From positions 1-64,000 of the forward strand of contig CAWFFH010000004.1 in NCBI GenBank assembly GCA_963815095.1: a DNA stretch of 64,000 nt. Direction: 5' to 3'. Made by a program: the position numbers and the translations under genes. This stretch comes from Candidatus Bathyarchaeota archaeon. GTDB lineage: Archaea; Thermoproteota; Bathyarchaeia; Bathyarchaeales; Bathycorpusculaceae. Numbering within the stretch: position 1 is the stretch's first letter; every line of letters begins with the position of its first letter. This document shows, in pieces, positions 578-6,570 of this stretch. The notes under the pieces were generated by a model. It was not told the DNA's origin. It did not search any database and worked only from the letters and a program-made list of their open reading frames with translations.

Positions 578-647
578 ATAGTTAATATTTCATGACTAAC
601 ATTCGTCAAACTTTCTTGACTAAGCCCAGTCAACGTTTCTTGACCAA
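578..647. repeat. Three tandem motif-A palindromes (consensus TTAGTCAA-N6-TTGACTAA), 24-bp period
   Basis: ATAGTTAA-TATTTC-ATGACTAA (578), TTCGTCAA-ACTTTC-TTGACTAA (602), CCAGTCAA-CGTTTC-TTGACCAA (626). Confidence 0.8.
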
Positions 648-676
648 ACAAACGTAGTCTAGATGGGGGAAAAGGT

Positions 677-1228
677 CTAACCACTAATCTTTCTTTTTCT
701 TGTTCCGCATACTATAATTGTCAATCCTGATAAGGCAACACCTAAACCAAGATAGAAAAATTGGAAAGGAAGTAAGGGAACATTTTGGGTTACATCTCTA
801 TATGCTGTCTCTGACCATTGTTTGGTTACTTGCCAATGAACGTCCTTTGAAGTAAATGTGCTTGAACTAATAAGAACAAAGTTGTAGCTTGAGTTTTGAG
901 GGACTGTCCAGTTTATGTTAACGGTTGTTAGGTTTGGATATGATAAGTAAGTTGTCGAACCATTATTAACTGTGAAGTCTATGCGTTTGCTTGAATTTAC
1001 GTTAACTTGAATATTCAAGTAGTCTCCAGCATTTAGAGAAAGTCCATCAGCAACTTTTGACGTTGGAGCTACATCCATCAAAAGACCAAAGCAACCTATA
1101 AGCACCATTGATTTTGGAATTTGATATGCCTCACTTGTGGTTTTGGGAAAGGAAACAAGCGTAAATGCGGTTAATAGAACGCCCAAAATAAGTGCAATAA
1201 TTCCAATAGCCAAGAGTGCTTTTTTCAT
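677..1228 (-). CDS. Membrane protein with N- and C-terminal TM helices and a beta-rich extracellular domain
   Basis: ORF track; hydrophobic ends and basic tail. Confidence 0.75.
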   Translation of the reverse strand: MKKALLAIGIIALILGVLLTAFTLVSFPKTTSEAYQIPKSMVLIGCFGLLMDVAPTSKVADGLSLNAGDYLNIQVNVNSSKRIDFTVNNGSTTYLSYPNLTTVNINWTVPQNSSYNFVLISSSTFTSKDVHWQVTKQWSETAYRDVTQNVPLLPFQFFYLGLGVALSGLTIIVCGTRKRKISG

Positions 1229-1269
1229 TTAATTTGCTTCCGATAACCAAGTTATTAATCTAACTTTTA

Positions 1270-1306
1270 GTTCTATTGACGGAACAAGCTGTTCCAAGTA
1301 TGGAAC
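1270..1306. promoter_or_regulatory. Motif B: tandem GTTCY-N6-RGAAC palindromes (putative operator)
   Basis: GTTCT-ATTGAC-GGAAC aagct GTTCC-AAGTAT-GGAAC, 42 bp upstream of the start at 1228. Confidence 0.7.
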
Positions 1307-1453
1307 ATATAAAAGCTGATTCTAAACATGGTGTGGGTACACCCAAGCGTGGGAAAAGGTCTACTTACTTAGTGAAACAGTTTTTCGCCTTCTCTCATGA
1401 AAGACGGTTCTCTAAGCCAGCGACCAACTTATCCTGAAAGCCAGTAAACCAAA

Positions 1454-2500
1454 CTACGCACCAATCTTTTTTAGCTTTTCTCCATAACGCCTCGTATTAG
1501 CACAGCTATAGACCTCACGCCTACTTAGCATGAACCAAACAATCTTAAGCATCTTACAAGCAACAGCAACAGCAGCCTTCTGATCACCACGCCTAGCCCT
1601 CACACGCTCATAAAACCCAGCCAATTTCTCATCATACTGCACAGCAGTCCTCGCAGCCTCAACCATAACCCACCTCAACAAGCTAGAACCACGCTTAGTA
1701 ATCCTACCAGTATACTCAACATTCCCAGATTGATGCACCGACGGAGCCAAACCAGCCCAAGAAATCAACTTCTTATAACTACTAAACCGCGTTATCGGAC
1801 CAATTTCACTATGAATCAACAATGCACCATAAACATCAACACCAGTCAAGCTAAGTAGCAACCGAACATCCTCATCCTCACAAGCGATTTTTCGAATAGC
1901 TTTATCCACCATCCCGACCTGCAAGTTAATAGATTCAATCAGCGAAAGATGGTTTTCCAAAATCAGTCTATCAAGCTCATTAAGTATCAGTGACCTCATC
2001 CAAGCAATTCCACCTTTACCGAACATATCTGAGAATTCACAACGATAACTATACTTGTCAACGATTGCATGTGCCTTGTTCTTTATAGCCGTGCGCATTC
2101 TAACCAAGCTCAGCCTATGCCTAACTAAACCTCGCATTTCACGTATGCTTCCTTGCGGAACATAGCTTTCAGCAACAAGATCAGCTCTCAGCAAATGCGC
2201 CAAAATCCTAGCATCCACCTTATCAGTTTTTATTTTCGCTGAAGCTATCACTTTAGTCTTCAATGGATTAGCCAGCACTACCTTAATGCTTCTATTATCC
2301 AATGCATCGTATATGCTTAGCCACAAATTCCCTGTAGATTCCATAACAACCTGATCCTCAACAGTTAGCATAGACGTCAAAGACTCTATTCCTTTAGTGT
2401 TGTTTTCAAAGAAGAATTCGCTCTCGATGGCGCCGGTTTGATTCATTATTGCTGCTCTGCATTTGGCTTTGCCAACATCTACTCCTACATATCTCACCAT
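1454..2500 (-). CDS. IS110-family DEDD transposase (bridge recombinase)
   Basis: VGVDVGK, MESTG and KTDKVDA motifs; C-terminal GLAPSVHQSG / ITKRG / A.VAVACK motifs. Confidence 0.95.
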   Translation of the reverse strand: MVRYVGVDVGKAKCRAAIMNQTGAIESEFFFENNTKGIESLTSMLTVEDQVVMESTGNLWLSIYDALDNRSIKVVLANPLKTKVIASAKIKTDKVDARILAHLLRADLVAESYVPQGSIREMRGLVRHRLSLVRMRTAIKNKAHAIVDKYSYRCEFSDMFGKGGIAWMRSLILNELDRLILENHLSLIESINLQVGMVDKAIRKIACEDEDVRLLLSLTGVDVYGALLIHSEIGPITRFSSYKKLISWAGLAPSVHQSGNVEYTGRITKRGSSLLRWVMVEAARTAVQYDEKLAGFYERVRARRGDQKAAVAVACKMLKIVWFMLSRREVYSCANTRRYGEKLKKIGA

Positions 2501-2511
2501 TTTTTTTCTTT

Positions 2512-2637
2512 CTCCTGCTGGCTTTCAGGCTGCAATCTCTCATACGGGCGAATGCCCAGTTCTATAGCAGCTCAGGTCAAGCCCAGTCTAAAAATCGGCC
2601 GCAAGGGCCAAGAAGGCACCGGACTAGCCAGCAAGAG
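2512..2637 (-). ncRNA. Putative IS110 bridge RNA
   Basis: Possible 12-bp closing helix plus two stem-internal-loop-hairpin domains; loop sequences match the target (GCCUUCU, UUUUUAGA) and donor (AUGAGAGA, UAUAG..CU) sites. Confidence 0.8.
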
Positions 2638-4005
2638 TTACTTTCTCACTCGTCTTTCATATAGTCTAAAAAGCAATAACGCGACACATATTACAATAAA
2701 CGCAATGGCGACCAAGAAATAAATACCCACAGACGCAGTTGGTGAAGATTCAGATATTTGATGTTCAAATGGTGGCTCTTCAAAAACAACGGACGAATAT
2801 GCGGTTGCCCAGTCAGGTAAGCTGATACTTACGCTTGAAGTATTAAACTCAGCCAAAAGAGGATAATTATCTCTTCTTGTTACATCGATAATAAAGGGTG
2901 AATCTCCGATGCCATCGCCATTTGCATCTGATCCGTTGTAACTGCTCCAATAATTACCTCTTTCTCCATTGTCAAAAGAACCACCCTGATGTGCTGTCCA
3001 ATTATGGTCTGTTCCAACTATTACAGTGTCCGTGTTTACATCCTGACTATTATTGACAAAATTATTATCATAGAAGACATTGTTTGCCCCAATTCCCCAA
3101 ATGTTTGCGACATAAGCTCCATCTTGGTTTGCGGTTACTTGGTTACCAAAATAGGTGTTGTTGTGTCCTTCCGTGGCGGCTTTTATCCCAACATCATTAT
3201 TCATTATTTCATTTTTTCCCAAAACGCAATTTGACGCATCACTTGATGTGCCTATACCACAGGTGCTATTGCTAATTTGATTGTTAAAAACTATATATCC
3301 ATCGCCGCCTACCGCTATTCCATTGCCATCCGTGACTATGTTTCCGCAAATAATGTCAGTAGTATGGGTAGCAACCATAGACCCAAGTGCATTATTTACC
3401 CAAATATCGCCGATTACCCTGTTTCCAGCGATGATGTTGTTCGATGAACTATAACATTCAACGCTTCCCCTGACTGTGTTTTGGGTAAAAATCTGGTAAG
3501 AACCCATCAAGAAAACAGAGTTATTTTGAATGATGTTACCTGTTATCAGAGTATTGTTTCCGTTAATAAGATAGAGACCACCCATACTTGTGGCATTGCT
3601 CGAAAATGTGAAGCCTGAAATCTTAACGTTATCAGCGGTAACTTCAAGTGAATTTTCGTAACTGGAAACTTGACTCCAATCAAATGGAATCGGATTATCG
3701 TATTCTATCCATTTAGGGCTAAGTTTGATTTGAGTAGTGGATTGGTCTTCACCTTTGAGCCAAACAGTTTTGTTAATAACTAAACTTGATTCAAAATACG
3801 TACCGCTTTTAACAAAAATAGTGTCGCCATTTGTAGCGTTTCCTATCGCTGTGGTAACAGTCGGGTAGTCATCTGGAACAACGATTGTTCTACTTTGGGC
3901 TTTAACGGTCGAAGGTGGTAGAAAAACTAAGGACATAAAGAATAATAAAACAAGAAATAATGCGAAGGTTTTGCCGATTTTGCCCATGCTTAGTAATAGG
4001 TACAT
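2638..4005 (-). CDS. NosD/right-handed beta-helix surface protein; C-terminal tail replaced by the IS insertion
   Basis: IVVPDDYPT, GDTIFVKSGTY, GNYWSSYNGSDANGDGIGD, DNYPL motifs; likely start MGKIGK at 3987. Confidence 0.85.
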   Translation of the reverse strand: MYLLLSMGKIGKTFALFLVLLFFMSLVFLPPSTVKAQSRTIVVPDDYPTVTTAIGNATNGDTIFVKSGTYFESSLVINKTVWLKGEDQSTTQIKLSPKWIEYDNPIPFDWSQVSSYENSLEVTADNVKISGFTFSSNATSMGGLYLINGNNTLITGNIIQNNSVFLMGSYQIFTQNTVRGSVECYSSSNNIIAGNRVIGDIWVNNALGSMVATHTTDIICGNIVTDGNGIAVGGDGYIVFNNQISNSTCGIGTSSDASNCVLGKNEIMNNDVGIKAATEGHNNTYFGNQVTANQDGAYVANIWGIGANNVFYDNNFVNNSQDVNTDTVIVGTDHNWTAHQGGSFDNGERGNYWSSYNGSDANGDGIGDSPFIIDVTRRDNYPLLAEFNTSSVSISLPDWATAYSSVVFEEPPFEHQISESSPTASVGIYFLVAIAFIVICVALLLFRLYERRVRK

Positions 4006-5372
4006 AGAAGCGTTAAAAGTGTTTTTGTATAGGTTTCTTGACTAAGTGAATATTTTTTAGTCCAAGTTTCTTGACTAAACCATTGATTACCCTTCGTACA
4101 ATAAACTAACAACCCAGCAGCCACAACCATCGTAGTAAGCAACAATAGTGATGCCCAGAAGGGAACCTCTGGAACAGTGGGAGTCGGAGTTGGCGAAGGT
4201 GTTGGGATTGATGGCAAAACGGATGAAATATTATAAGCGTAAAGGTTTCCCTCATAAGGTTGAACATATAGAATACCGTTTGCGTAGCTAAAAGAAGACA
4301 AGTTAATTCCACCGTTTTGATTAGTCCAAAGCGGATAAGTCCAAAGTTGTACACCGTTCGTTATATTTAGAGCATAGAGGATATCGCCATTGACAGCTGC
4401 ACCAGCAATGCATACTACGTTATCAATAACTACAGGGGATGATTCTATCTGAATAATATTTGATTTCCAGATTTGAGCATTGTTGGAAGCATTGATGGAA
4501 TAAATGTTGTTGCCATATAATTGAGCCTCTATGTAAACCTCATCAGGTCCAGCAACAGCTGAAGTGCCGCCAACAATATCGGCGATAATGCTGCGGTCAA
4601 TGTCTAACTTTTTACCGTTAGTTGCGTTTAAAGCAAAGTATTCGACAGCTTCATTATTGATGTAAACTACGCCGTTGAGAACCTTAGGGGAGCTATCAAT
4701 CCATAAACCTGTATCGTAATTCCAAAGCAAGATGCCTGTAGAAGCGTTTATGGCATATACGTGGTGGTCGCCACTTCCGATGAAGACAACTCCATTGGAG
4801 AAGACTGGAGCTGTATAAATTTGCCAAAAGGAAGAACCTAATATGCAATGCCAAAGTTGGATGCCGTTTGAAGCGTTAAAAGCGTAAACGCTGTTATCGA
4901 TAGAGCCAATGAAGACAATTCCATTAATTACGGATGAGGGATGACTGAGGTGTCCTATTGGGGATTTCCAAATTATGTCCCCGGTGGAAGCGTTTAGAGC
5001 GTAAACGTTGGTGATTGAACCGATGTATATTATTCCGCTGGAAACGGTTAGCGAAGGAGTAAAAGGGGAGATTGTTTGAATGTCGGAGGAAGAAACCTCT
5101 GAATATGCGTTAAAGCTCCATAAGACGTTGGCGTTTTCATTGTCTAACGCGTAGATGCTGCCATTTTTTGTGCTCACGTAAATTATGTTTTTGGCAGTGG
5201 ATAAAGAATAAGCTAAATCATTTGAAGAGTTCCAAATGACTGTTCGAGTAATTGAAACAGATGGGTTTGTGCTATTTTGAGCACTTGCAGGGTTAACTAT
5301 CAGCGTCGTCAGGCATGACATAGAAATGATGAAAGTAAGGAATAATGCGAAAGTCTTGTTGGTTTTACCCAT
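3990..5372 (-). CDS. PQQ-like (BamB-type) beta-propeller surface protein with PT linker and PEF-like anchor
   Basis: Repeats of V(F/Y)IGS.D..VYA.NAS.G...[16 protein letters not shown] followed by a TM helix; the tail reads through motif A. Confidence 0.85.
   Translation of the reverse strand: MGKTNKTFALFLTFIISMSCLTTLIVNPASAQNSTNPSVSITRTVIWNSSNDLAYSLSTAKNIIYVSTKNGSIYALDNENANVLWSFNAYSEVSSSDIQTISPFTPSLTVSSGIIYIGSITNVYALNASTGDIIWKSPIGHLSHPSSVINGIVFIGSIDNSVYAFNASNGIQLWHCILGSSFWQIYTAPVFSNGVVFIGSGDHHVYAINASTGILLWNYDTGLWIDSSPKVLNGVVYINNEAVEYFALNATNGKKLDIDRSIIADIVGGTSAVAGPDEVYIEAQLYGNNIYSINASNNAQIWKSNIIQIESSPVVIDNVVCIAGAAVNGDILYALNITNGVQLWTYPLWTNQNGGINLSSFSYANGILYVQPYEGNLYAYNISSVLPSIPTPSPTPTPTVPEVPFWASLLLLTTMVVAAGLLVYCTKGNQWFSQETWTKKYSLSQETYTKTLLTLLCTYY
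4024..4078. repeat. Two motif-A palindromes
   Basis: TTTGTATA-GGTTTC-TTGACTAA (4024) and TTAGTCCA-AGTTTC-TTGACTAA (4057). Confidence 0.75.
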
Positions 5373-5408
5373 ATTTAGTAATAGGGGTATAGAGGCGATA
5401 AAAGACTA

Positions 5409-5430
5409 TTCGTAAACAAAGATTGATAAA
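5409..5430. repeat. Degenerate motif A
   Basis: TTCGTAAA-CAAAGA-TTGATAAA, 37 bp upstream of the ATG at 5372, the same spacing as other copies. Confidence 0.5.
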
Positions 5431-5432
5431 GG

Positions 5433-5471
5433 TCATTGCTTCAAGTTAGCGGTTTTTCGATGCCTTCTAAA
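5433..5471 (-). pseudogene. Orphan C-terminal tail of a surface-protein gene (FRRHRKTANLKQ*)
   Basis: Minus strand reads TTT AGA AGG CAT CGA AAA ACC GCT AAC TTG AAG CAA TGA with no upstream ORF. Confidence 0.65.
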
Positions 5472-5649
5472 AGTTGCCTGAAATAGGTTAATCCATTAGC
5501 AGCTTTTTAGTTTTAAGAAGCCCGACAAAAAAGGCTGTGACGAAAAAAAGCGATGATTCGAAATGAGCCTATCGGATAACCTAATCGAACATCTTTGGGA
5601 AGCATCGCAGTCACTCTTTTTTAGCTTCACAAATGATAGGAATCTTTGT

Positions 5650-6570
5650 TTAAGGTTTGGTGTGCTCGATAAGTGTCATGTCCATGCTCATGTTCATTGC
5701 GTAGTTCAAAGTTGCTGATTGAGTAGAAACACTTTCTTGCATGCTTGCCTTAATTTGCCTCATCGTTCCATATTCCATGTAAATTTGATAGTTCATATCC
5801 ATGCTTATGGTAATGTTTGCTGGTGTAAAGTTGCTCATTCCGCTTAACGGCGAATGATAGTTCATTCTTAAGTCGTTGCTTGTAATGTCTATCCTGAAAA
5901 CTTTGTATGTTCCTGCAGGCACTGTGAGGTCTTGGATGCCTTTGAAAGTCATTTTTAGGCCGCCAGTTATCCCAAGGCTTGAGTTTCCAGTTGGAAATGG
6001 CACATTTACAGAGTCGCCCACTTTGACTTCTGGCTGGTTTAGCAGCTGGGCAAGATAGGAAGTACTTGTTAAGCCGTTGTTGGGTATTTCTTGCTGTGTG
6101 CTTCCAAGGTTAAGAAGGTAAGTTGAATATCCAGTTTTGTTCATTTTCTCAATAATTGAGACGCTAATTGGTTTGTTGTTTAGATTATTCATTGTCATTG
6201 TATGATTCAAAGTATAGTATTCACCGTCAAAACCAGTGACTTCTATGGTTTGCTGGGAATTAATGGTAGTATTCTTAGGCATAATAGTGCTAGATCCAGT
6301 TGCCAAAGCCGAATTATCGTAACTGGCAGTTATAGTTGAGTCATAAACCATCTTCTCGCCAACAGTATAATCAACATTTAGAGGTATTACCGATTGGCCA
6401 AGAGGAACAAAAAGTGCTATGCCAATAATTGCAACGGCAGTAATGGCCACCAAAGAAAAGAACTTTTTCCCAAGCCACCTTCGCTTGACAGGCGTAGATG
6501 AAATTGTTTGTTCATTTGCACTGGGCAATTCTGGAGATGATGCCACTAGTTTATCTCGAATGTCATTCAT
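5650..6570 (-). CDS. Membrane-anchored extracellular protein
   Basis: N-terminal TM helix; LTVPAGTYKVFRI motif. Confidence 0.8.
   Translation of the reverse strand: MNDIRDKLVASSPELPSANEQTISSTPVKRRWLGKKFFSLVAITAVAIIGIALFVPLGQSVIPLNVDYTVGEKMVYDSTITASYDNSALATGSSTIMPKNTTINSQQTIEVTGFDGEYYTLNHTMTMNNLNNKPISVSIIEKMNKTGYSTYLLNLGSTQQEIPNNGLTSTSYLAQLLNQPEVKVGDSVNVPFPTGNSSLGITGGLKMTFKGIQDLTVPAGTYKVFRIDITSNDLRMNYHSPLSGMSNFTPANITISMDMNYQIYMEYGTMRQIKASMQESVSTQSATLNYAMNMSMDMTLIEHTKP

Follow-up and report, generated by a model that had tools for sequence, protein, structure and literature searches.

The stretch of DNA analysed here (the window; 64,000 nt, positions 1 to 64,000 of contig CAWFFH010000004.1 of the Candidatus Bathyarchaeota archaeon assembly GCA_963815095.1) carries on its minus strand a gene for a secreted NosD-like β-helix protein with a C-terminal membrane helix (2665..4005; PF05048, E 9e-17), which is cut after ...LLLFR in a 459-aa open frame by an insertion sequence (IS) of 1273 bp (copy A; 1392..2664, minus strand; ends taken from the alignment of copies). 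The transposase of the IS (348 aa; 1454..2500, minus strand) has a DEDD/RuvC-like domain and a Tnp domain, as identified with Pfam (PF01548, E 4.8e-28; PF02371, E 7.4e-22), with NCBIfam (NF033542, 'IS110 family RNA-guided transposase', 243.8 bits against a cut-off of 140) and with the structure of the IS621 transposase (8wt6, E 6e-15), to whose motifs IDTA, EATG, TDTVDA and ESGS its own VDVG, ESTG, TDKVDA and QSG align. Its gene leaves non-coding ends of 164 nt upstream and 62 nt downstream. Sequence and copy alignment placed subterminal inverted repeats of 10 bp, conserved in all relatives, at 2651..2660 (left, ATGAAAGACG) and 1397..1406 (right, CGTCTTTCAT, the complement of the left repeat), both on the minus strand. 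Bacterial relatives of the IS were found in Gemmataceae and Acidobacteriaceae, with the element ends outside the aligned stretch.

A blastn search detected four near-identical copies of the IS in the genome (99.2–100% identity), with one variable column inside the element in the displayed blocks of the four-copy alignment. All four occupy the same site, CTTTTT-AG-AAGGCAYCG, with a shorter right half in copy A. Its codons read L-F-R-R-H-R and follow a C-terminal membrane helix; three of the copies sit after the membrane helices of open frames of 342–459 aa. There is no target-site duplication, and AG(A) alone is common to the two junctions; because this shared core is present at both, the boundaries of the IS are ambiguous by 2–3 nt. 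The left flank CTTTTTAGA adjoins every copy, and the right flank is AGGCATCGAAAA in three copies and AGGCGAAAAA in one. The flanks are identical for 9 nt to the left and 12 nt to the right of the element, and past these points the copies adjoin unrelated genes.

The insertion exchanges one tail for another. Reading directly across the flanks, with the IS left out, gave the open frame ...LLLFR+RRKTVSLSK* with its stop at 1363-1361, as the earlier note had proposed; the displaced original tail RRKTVSLSK* (1361..1391, minus strand) serves as the right half of the target at copy A, where the consensus CAT is absent. An uninterrupted orthologue of the host gene, in genome G021, ends ...SFLLFRKYRKTAKAR*, with a 9-residue basic tail at the insertion point. 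In the interrupted gene, the open reading frame (2638-4005, minus strand) ends ...VALLLFRLYERRVRK*, its last 27 nt (2664-2638) coming from the IS: translation of 2638..2664 (minus strand) gives, in frame with the host gene, a substitute tail LYERRVRK followed by TAA, which ends one base short of the basal stem of the predicted RNA described below. This replacement, also anticipated by the note, is identical in 4/4 copies. It is identical too in a 91-nt left-end remnant in another species (G044), an independent insertion that is 95% identical, has the same guides and sits after ...AALLLFR of a Kelch-repeat protein. Archaeosortase-type sorting-signal models (NCBIfam and Pfam) had no match on the host proteins, and we therefore call these proteins 'C-terminally anchored' rather than PEF-CTERM; for some neighbouring tails the PEF label is our assumption. 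GACCTTTTCC, considered as an element enriched after stop codons, was rejected, with 21 matches against 18 for the reversed control.

Folding predicted a bridge/seek RNA in the leader of the IS (2513..2637, minus strand), consisting of a basal stem and two stem-loops, each with an internal loop. The single-sequence fold had a minimum free energy of -54.3 kcal/mol, with a z-score of only -2.08. An RNAalifold consensus of 14 related leaders kept the same two stem-loops, and 4 of its 23 pairs had changed on both sides; stem-loop 2 is invariant and so contributes no covariation support. Rfam (evalue mode, window 1200-2800) returned no match at gathering level, and a sub-threshold match to sR28 inside the transposase gene was rejected as chance. 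In loop 1, the 5′ strand (2611..2621, minus strand; RNA CGGUGCCUUCU, AGAAGGCACCG on the plus strand) is complementary to the sense strand of the core and right target half (AGAAGGCAYCG), and the 3′ strand (2586..2594, minus strand; RNA UUUUUAGAC) is the same as the left target half, the core and 2 nt of the left end of the IS. Loop 2, the predicted donor loop (2536..2566, minus strand; from the fold and the consensus), matches the ends of the IS itself: UAUAG, on its 5′ strand, is the complement of a CTATA close to where the left end begins, and its 3′ strand AUGAGAGA repeats the sequence of the right end and the core. In related elements this 3′ strand reads AUGAG-AG or AUGAG-UG, following a core of AG or TG.

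If loop 1 specifies the target, its strands should change with the flanks of each element. Among 11 parsed related elements of Bathyarchaeia, representing 8 guide classes, both strands covaried with their own flanks, the 5′ strand with the right and the 3′ strand with the left. The longest exact match between loop and own flank averaged 7.1 nt (5′ strand) and 7.0 nt (3′ strand), compared with 3.35 (n=126) and 3.31 (n=120), respectively, for the flanks of other elements; the right flank of one element (L005) matches its own loop over only 4 nt. With the single site of all four copies and the match of both loop strands, this covariation upholds the proposal that the guide is set to the FRRHR tail.

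We conclude that this is very probably an active or recently active RNA-guided IS of the IS110 family, aimed, as judged from its sequence, at L-F-R-R-H-R tail codons. About 125 nt of the left end would fold into the bridge/seek RNA, whose first internal loop would set the target on both strands, the 5′ strand pairing with the sense strand of AG+AAGGCAYCG and the 3′ strand with the antisense strand of TTTTT+AG; the second loop would match both ends of the IS. Recombination at the shared AG core would then insert the element in one orientation and without target duplication. The 17–19 nt specified in this way would be codons at the membrane/cytoplasm boundary of a few C-terminally anchored secreted proteins in a Bathyarchaeia-like genus. 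Since the target consists of these codons, an in-gene insertion removes only the cytoplasmic tail of 9–15 residues, which would be replaced by 8 mostly basic residues and a stop encoded by the IS. We infer that the predicted RNA is expressed and directs the transposase, that host proteins remain functional after truncation and that read-through transcription from the host gene feeds the element.

We assign the IS to the IS110 family in the broad ISfinder sense by its domains, site-specific insertion and predicted structured-RNA end. Studies of IS621-like elements (PMC11208160, PMC13626964), including the description by Durrant et al. 2024 (PMC11208160) of the bridge RNA of IS621, a member of the IS110 group, show several features in common with this IS: a DEDD + Tnp transposase, an RNA encoded ahead of the transposase gene, within the left end (PMC11208160), target and donor loops that each read both strands and overlap at a short core, and the lack of target duplication. 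The transposase similarity is distant, however (the E value of 6e-15 given above), and the core, AG or TG in the transposase sense (CT or CA on the other strand), is unlike that of IS621. In the published description of IS621 and the IS110 group (PMC11208160, PMC13626964), the top-strand guide follows the bottom-strand (left) guide in the 5′ to 3′ direction. The order predicted for this IS is the reverse, its 5′ loop strand being the one that pairs with the sense of the right half. The IS110 group is also described as having no subterminal inverted repeats or ones of 2–3 bp, compared with 10 bp here.

These last two features fit the IS1111 group instead. According to Siddiquee et al. 2024 (PMC11187229), who described seekRNA for the IS1111-type elements ISEc11, ISPa11 and ISKpn4, the subterminal inverted repeats of the group measure 7–17 bp and, by description, the complement of the top strand lies 5′ of the bottom-strand match in the RNA, as it does in our prediction. 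The non-coding region of IS1111-type elements, by contrast, is nearly always downstream of the transposase gene, whereas that of this IS is upstream; an exception is ISMtsp17, an IS1111 relative that likewise has its non-coding region upstream (PMC11187229). Judged by these features, the element would be of IS1111 type, but with its predicted RNA upstream of the transposase. The same paper gives a precedent for guidance to coding sequence in ISEc21, an IS110-type element with an RNA guide on conserved codons of a paralogous gene set (PMC11187229). The codons targeted by ISEc21 belong to the catalytic core of other mobile elements, which its insertion inactivates; this IS, in contrast, enters surface-protein genes of the host at their final codons, leaving ectodomain and anchor intact. 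Among the matches listed in a literature search on such elements, none mentioned Bathyarchaeia or Bathyarchaeota.

The element, from a lineage of uncultured archaea, is a candidate natural example of an RNA-guided recombinase with its guide set to a short coding motif, and because the host frame runs on into the left end and soon terminates there after a short basic tail, the host loses only the cytoplasmic tail. Its ends and guide order of IS1111 type, together with an upstream RNA, would define a compact family (RNA of ~125 nt, protein of 348 aa), naturally diversified into the 8 guide classes seen, that could serve for a comparison of both arrangements. Knowledge of the mechanism itself is unchanged, as the IS adds one more member to a kind already known.

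In this genome the target is present in few copies and nearly exhausted. The earlier note had likened it to a multicopy motif of the REP kind, and here it did not stand: PMC11208160 gives repeated host sequences, the high-copy REP, as the natural targets of IS621, whereas this IS uses a low-copy coding motif, intact twice in 2.69 Mb, with six sites in all (four occupied, two empty). The 14-mer TTTAGAAGGCAYCG is nevertheless more abundant than chance allows, being expected 0.04 times in the genome and found intact twice, and it is also split by the IS in three of the four copies. A search with the right half of the target gave 8 exact matches, all of them accounted for. In 40 relatives, the intact motif occurred 0–2 times per genome (5 of 24 genomes of the same genus, 0 of 16 of other genera), and 6/7 of these sites lie in the same kind of tail. 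A crude scan of the genome, blind to tails whose helix contains a charged residue, gave 217 frames with a C-terminal anchor, and the only LLLFR-type tails recognized among them were the three interrupted ones; a strict search for the HRK-tail pattern gave 2 matches. Such elements can evidently persist on very few sites.

One of the two empty sites lies in the window. This site (O1; 5433..5474, minus strand, core AG at 5468-5467) reads TTT AGA AGG CAT CGA ... at 5471-5433, that is, FRRHRKTANLKQ*, between two genes on the same strand and 60 nt upstream of the start of a PQQ-repeat gene. It is an intact empty target, and it fits the guide region at 2611-2621 better than the occupied site does: the loop 1 strand pairs with it over 11 positions (10 Watson–Crick and one rG-dT), but with the site of copy A over only 7 (AGAAGGC) before diverging, because CAT is absent there. 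The gene to which its tail would belong is missing directly upstream, where there are only 8 open codons, unlike a membrane helix. The tail itself, its better fit to the guide and the missing gene had been read correctly by the note. Gene-less tails of this kind make up three of the six sites (O1 and O2, empty, and site B, occupied), and all three keep only 6–9 nt to the left of the core.

We give roughly an even chance to the view that the IS had no part in the origin of the orphan tails: gene loss or rearrangement in tandem arrays of surface-protein genes would have left them behind, still recognizable to the guide. At the DNA level, a module made of tail, intergenic spacer and the start of the following gene is repeated, tail cassettes are widespread in the genus, and O1 and site B each precede another surface-protein gene by 60–75 nt, the position of real tails in arrays. 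Two observations fit this view poorly, as the three orphans all break within 6–9 nt of the core rather than somewhere along a gene of ~1 kb, and the right-half search yielded no longer remnants. The presence of orphans at 3/6 sites is suggestive of deletion driven by the IS. The note had combined such deletions with a multicopy safe harbour resembling that of REPs for IS621, a combination that we regard as improbable. In its favour, every in-gene insertion spares the membrane helix and ends in a short basic tail, the orphans consist of a minimal target and downstream tail only, one of them (site B) is occupied, and the G044 remnant represents a deletion that began within an inserted copy. Against it, the motif is as scarce here and in the 40 relatives as described above, and the state before deletion was not found: synteny around O1 with the nearest relative, G075, holds down to window position ~5519 and then differs, ending ~45 nt upstream of the orphan and not at the core. 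The left flank of site B has its sole match over 72 nt in G059, which stops ~12 nt left of the core; its right flank had no match in 5 genomes. Reciprocal products, with gene helix, IS and a non-tail flank, were seen in 0/4 copies.

A more specific version, which we consider unlikely to a similar degree, is that the IS makes its own landing pads: recombination at the right junction would delete the adjacent gene and leave a minimal target and tail that can be re-invaded harmlessly. The recombinase might act at an AG site that is T-rich and matches only weakly, or two copies might undergo homologous recombination; site B would then be a re-occupied pad, and O1 and O2 pads still empty. If so, landing pads would turn a scarce coding target into neutral safe harbours while pruning the arrays of surface-protein genes. 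That the shared flanks were instead copied along with the IS by segmental duplication or homologous recombination, with the loop complementarity coincidental, is very improbable, for although near-identical copies could in principle arise by duplication, the flank identity ends at 9 and 12 nt with unrelated genes beyond, and guide and flank covary over 8 guide classes in other genomes.

The reading of an RNA-guided element aimed at tail codons also has to accommodate a further insertion. The note implied that copies would be confined to tails, which holds for the four copies of the assembly (all in genes or orphan tails), but not for a soil-metagenome contig (X4) in which the right end of a variant copy with 1 SNP is joined to a site with no insertion in this assembly; the right flank of this variant is not a tail and matches the right-hand guide over ~6 nt. 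Given this match, the 7 nt at copy A and 11 TTTTAGAAGG sites elsewhere in the genome that are all unoccupied, site use is not fully predicted by pairing alone. Neither a circle junction nor an empty-site joint was seen in the contigs of X1–X4 (window 5008-6000 uncovered). The X4 contig is an insertion polymorphism in nature.

Four copies of a 1273-bp IS110-family element, 99.2-100% identical by blastn, are present in the 2.69-Mb, nine-contig genome that carries the window (C4:1-64000): copy A in the window itself (1392-2664, minus strand), copy B at C4:83628-84900, and copies C (C3:1398579-1399851) and D (C3:1060827-1062099) on another contig. A single column within the element varies in the displayed alignment blocks of the four copies. 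The transposase ORF (window 2500-1454, minus strand, 348 amino acids) has both Pfam domains of IS110-family transposases, scores 243.8 bits against the NCBIfam model 'IS110 family RNA-guided transposase' (cut-off 140) and matches the solved IS621 transposase at E 6e-15.

We compared the junctions of the four copies. The left flank is CTTTTTAGA in all of them and the right flank is AGGCATCGAAAA in three and AGGCGAAAAA in copy A; beyond these short stretches the flanks are unrelated. Since AG(A) alone is common to both junctions, the empty target reads CTTTTT-AG-AAGGCAYCG, without duplication. The 164-nt leader is predicted to form a basal stem and two stem-loops, with one internal loop apiece (-54.3 kcal/mol, z -2.08). 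The 5′ strand of loop 1 (GGUGCCUUCU) is complementary to the core and right target half, and its 3′ strand (UUUUUAGAC) equals the left target half, the core and two bases of the IS left end. In loop 2, UAUAG complements CTATA near the beginning of the left end; AUGAGAGA is identical to the right end together with the core.

Copies A, C and D each follow a C-terminal membrane helix. The open frames they interrupt, 459, 342 and 416 amino acids long, respectively, code for a NosD-like β-helix protein and for two others whose Ig/OmpL47-like matches are weak. The earlier note had described a substitute tail in the window, and this holds: the host ORF (2638-4005) ends in LLLFRLYERRVRK and a stop, with its final 27 nt contributed by the IS, and excision restores LLLFR+RRKTVSLSK with a stop at 1363-1361, also as proposed. 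Insertion would retain the helix and first arginine of the host protein, and eight IS-encoded residues of net positive charge would replace the native tail of 9-15 residues. The IS-supplied TAA ends one base ahead of the predicted basal stem. The IS always points in the same direction as its host gene, so that transcripts reading through into it could be a source of the RNA; PMC13626964 shows this for IS621.

The intact target 14-mer occurs 0-2 times per genome among 40 relatives, in 5 of 24 same-genus genomes and in none of 16 genomes of other genera. Of the seven motif sites in relatives, six come immediately after a hydrophobic helix, in open frames of 69-280 amino acids reading FRRHRK... 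to a stop; the exception, L080, has no such helix-plus-tail context. In G021 the orthologue of the copy A host gene (75% nucleotide identity) carries no interruption and terminates in SFLLFRKYRKTAKAR. A 91-nt left-end remnant in G044, 95% identical to the IS and with the same guides, follows the AALLLFR segment in a Kelch-repeat protein and there, too, encodes LYERRVRK before a stop; this insertion arose independently, in another species. The earlier reading of AGAAGGCACCG in the guide region was confirmed at window 2611-2621, and the proposal that the guide is programmed against FRRHR tails proved right, with insertions, relatives' sites, G021 and G044 in agreement. Its description of the motif as multicopy was not borne out, as the whole genome has two intact copies (0.04 expected) and six sites. 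A crude scan of the genome returned 217 C-terminal-anchor frames, among which only three LLLFR-type tails were recognized, each beginning RLYE.

The nearest transposase relatives (57-76% identity) come from records titled Bathyarchaeia or Bathyarchaeota MAGs, and related IS DNA is found in 13 of 119 other same-genus genomes. Leaders of related elements retain both stem-loops and the ends TTATGAAAGAC and GTCTTTCATGAG. In the RNAalifold consensus computed from 14 leaders, four of the 23 pairs show both-sided changes, all within stem-loop 1; stem-loop 2 does not vary. The loop 1 strands differ among related elements and track their own flanks. Over 12 parsed elements, with averages that include the unparsed row L001 (a cut locus), the mean longest exact match to the element's own flank is 7.1 nt for the 5′ strand and 7.0 nt for the 3′ strand, compared with 3.35 (n=126, maximum 9) and 3.31 (n=120, maximum 5) against other elements' flanks. 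The parsed elements form eight guide classes, with sharing among L003, L004 and L008, among L001, L002 and L102, and among L106, L107 and L109. The 3′ strand of the donor loop is AUGAG-AG or AUGAG-UG, in step with the element's core. Conserved fold and loop-flank covariation are together the signature of a predicted bridge/seek RNA.

Some targets of these relatives have features of their own. L003, L004 and L008, three copies in one Nitrososphaerota-titled MAG, share the target CTATTGC-TG-CTGGAA, with a recurring GGCTTGGACCTGCGAA motif on either side within about 80 nt; this target seems to be placed inside a repeated unit. At L002/L101 and L102 (target GAAGT-AG-TAGTC), the inverted complement GACTACTAC lies about 25-30 nt downstream in the right flank, so that the target resembles an arm of a putative terminator- or REP-like hairpin. 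L105 (G046:C26:17256-17556) is a 300-nt right-end fragment (84% identity, query 975-1273) whose left part is missing, with AGTATACCC after the solo right end.

Sequence-based predictions suggest a mode of working like that described for IS621 (PMC11208160, PMC13626964), whereas the guide order is reversed and the IS has 10-bp subterminal inverted repeats; PMC11187229 gives these two features as hallmarks of IS1111-type elements. The same source describes ISMtsp17, one of the rare relatives of IS1111 whose non-coding region lies upstream, as in the IS, and ISEc21, an IS110-type element that targets conserved codons. Each single feature therefore has a precedent; new in detail are the way they are combined, the lineage of the host and the resulting tail swap.

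Three of the six sites lack a gene: the empty orphan tails O1 (window 5433-5474) and O2 (C6:95308), and occupied site B. As the earlier note had read it, the window tail (5471-5433) is FRRHRKTANLKQ with just 8 open codons upstream; at site B the open frame has just 16 codons. All three retain 6-9 nt left of the core and the entire tail on the right, and a search with the right target half turned up neither longer nor shorter remnants. Another surface-protein gene begins 60-75 nt downstream of O1 and of site B, as is the case after real tails in arrays. The deletions suggested earlier are compatible with this pattern, which fits IS-linked loss of the upstream gene. Comparison with relatives recovered no ancestral state; where relatives align at the orphans, similarity does not run to the core but ends 12-45 nt short of it.

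The IS is present in contigs from four soil-metagenome runs of one study, with loose ends that correspond to the flanks of copies B, C and D. In run X4, one contig (861 nt) passes from the right end of a variant with one SNP into 30 letters identical to C3:1064586 onward. This site (TTTTC-AG-AAGGTCTG, C3:1064574-1064615) is empty in the assembly; copy D is 2.5 kb away, and there is overlap with the stop codon of an opposite-strand 272-amino-acid frame ending PPPPPPPAQTF. Its match to the guides is confined to the surroundings of the core, and the genome's eleven other TTTTAGAAGG sites are unoccupied. This off-target insertion may be a local hop.

Just upstream of surface-protein gene starts we observed palindromic boxes (TTAGTCAAGAAAnnTTGACTAA) that occur in pairs, spaced by 24-35 nt, with a T-rich TATA-like stretch after them (window 600-660 and 4020-4085, C3:7634, C3:730591, C4:291714 and other places). 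GTCAAGAAA occurs 93 times compared with 47 for the reversed control, with eight pairs at 20-60-nt spacing. The boxes are likely to be an operator or promoter module of the surface-protein regulon. A PQQ-repeat gene (3990-5372, minus strand) runs about 35 codons beyond its C-terminal helix, crossing the next gene's promoter boxes (window 3990-4100) and overlapping the start of that gene at 4005; the PQQ-repeat gene may no longer have its original stop. Downstream of copy B, a surface-protein gene (C4:84976-85778; 4977-5779 of excised locus L119) looks frameshifted, being divided between two overlapping frames (170 and 99 amino acids), and carries a related tail, LALAFRKHRNPDK, at its end.
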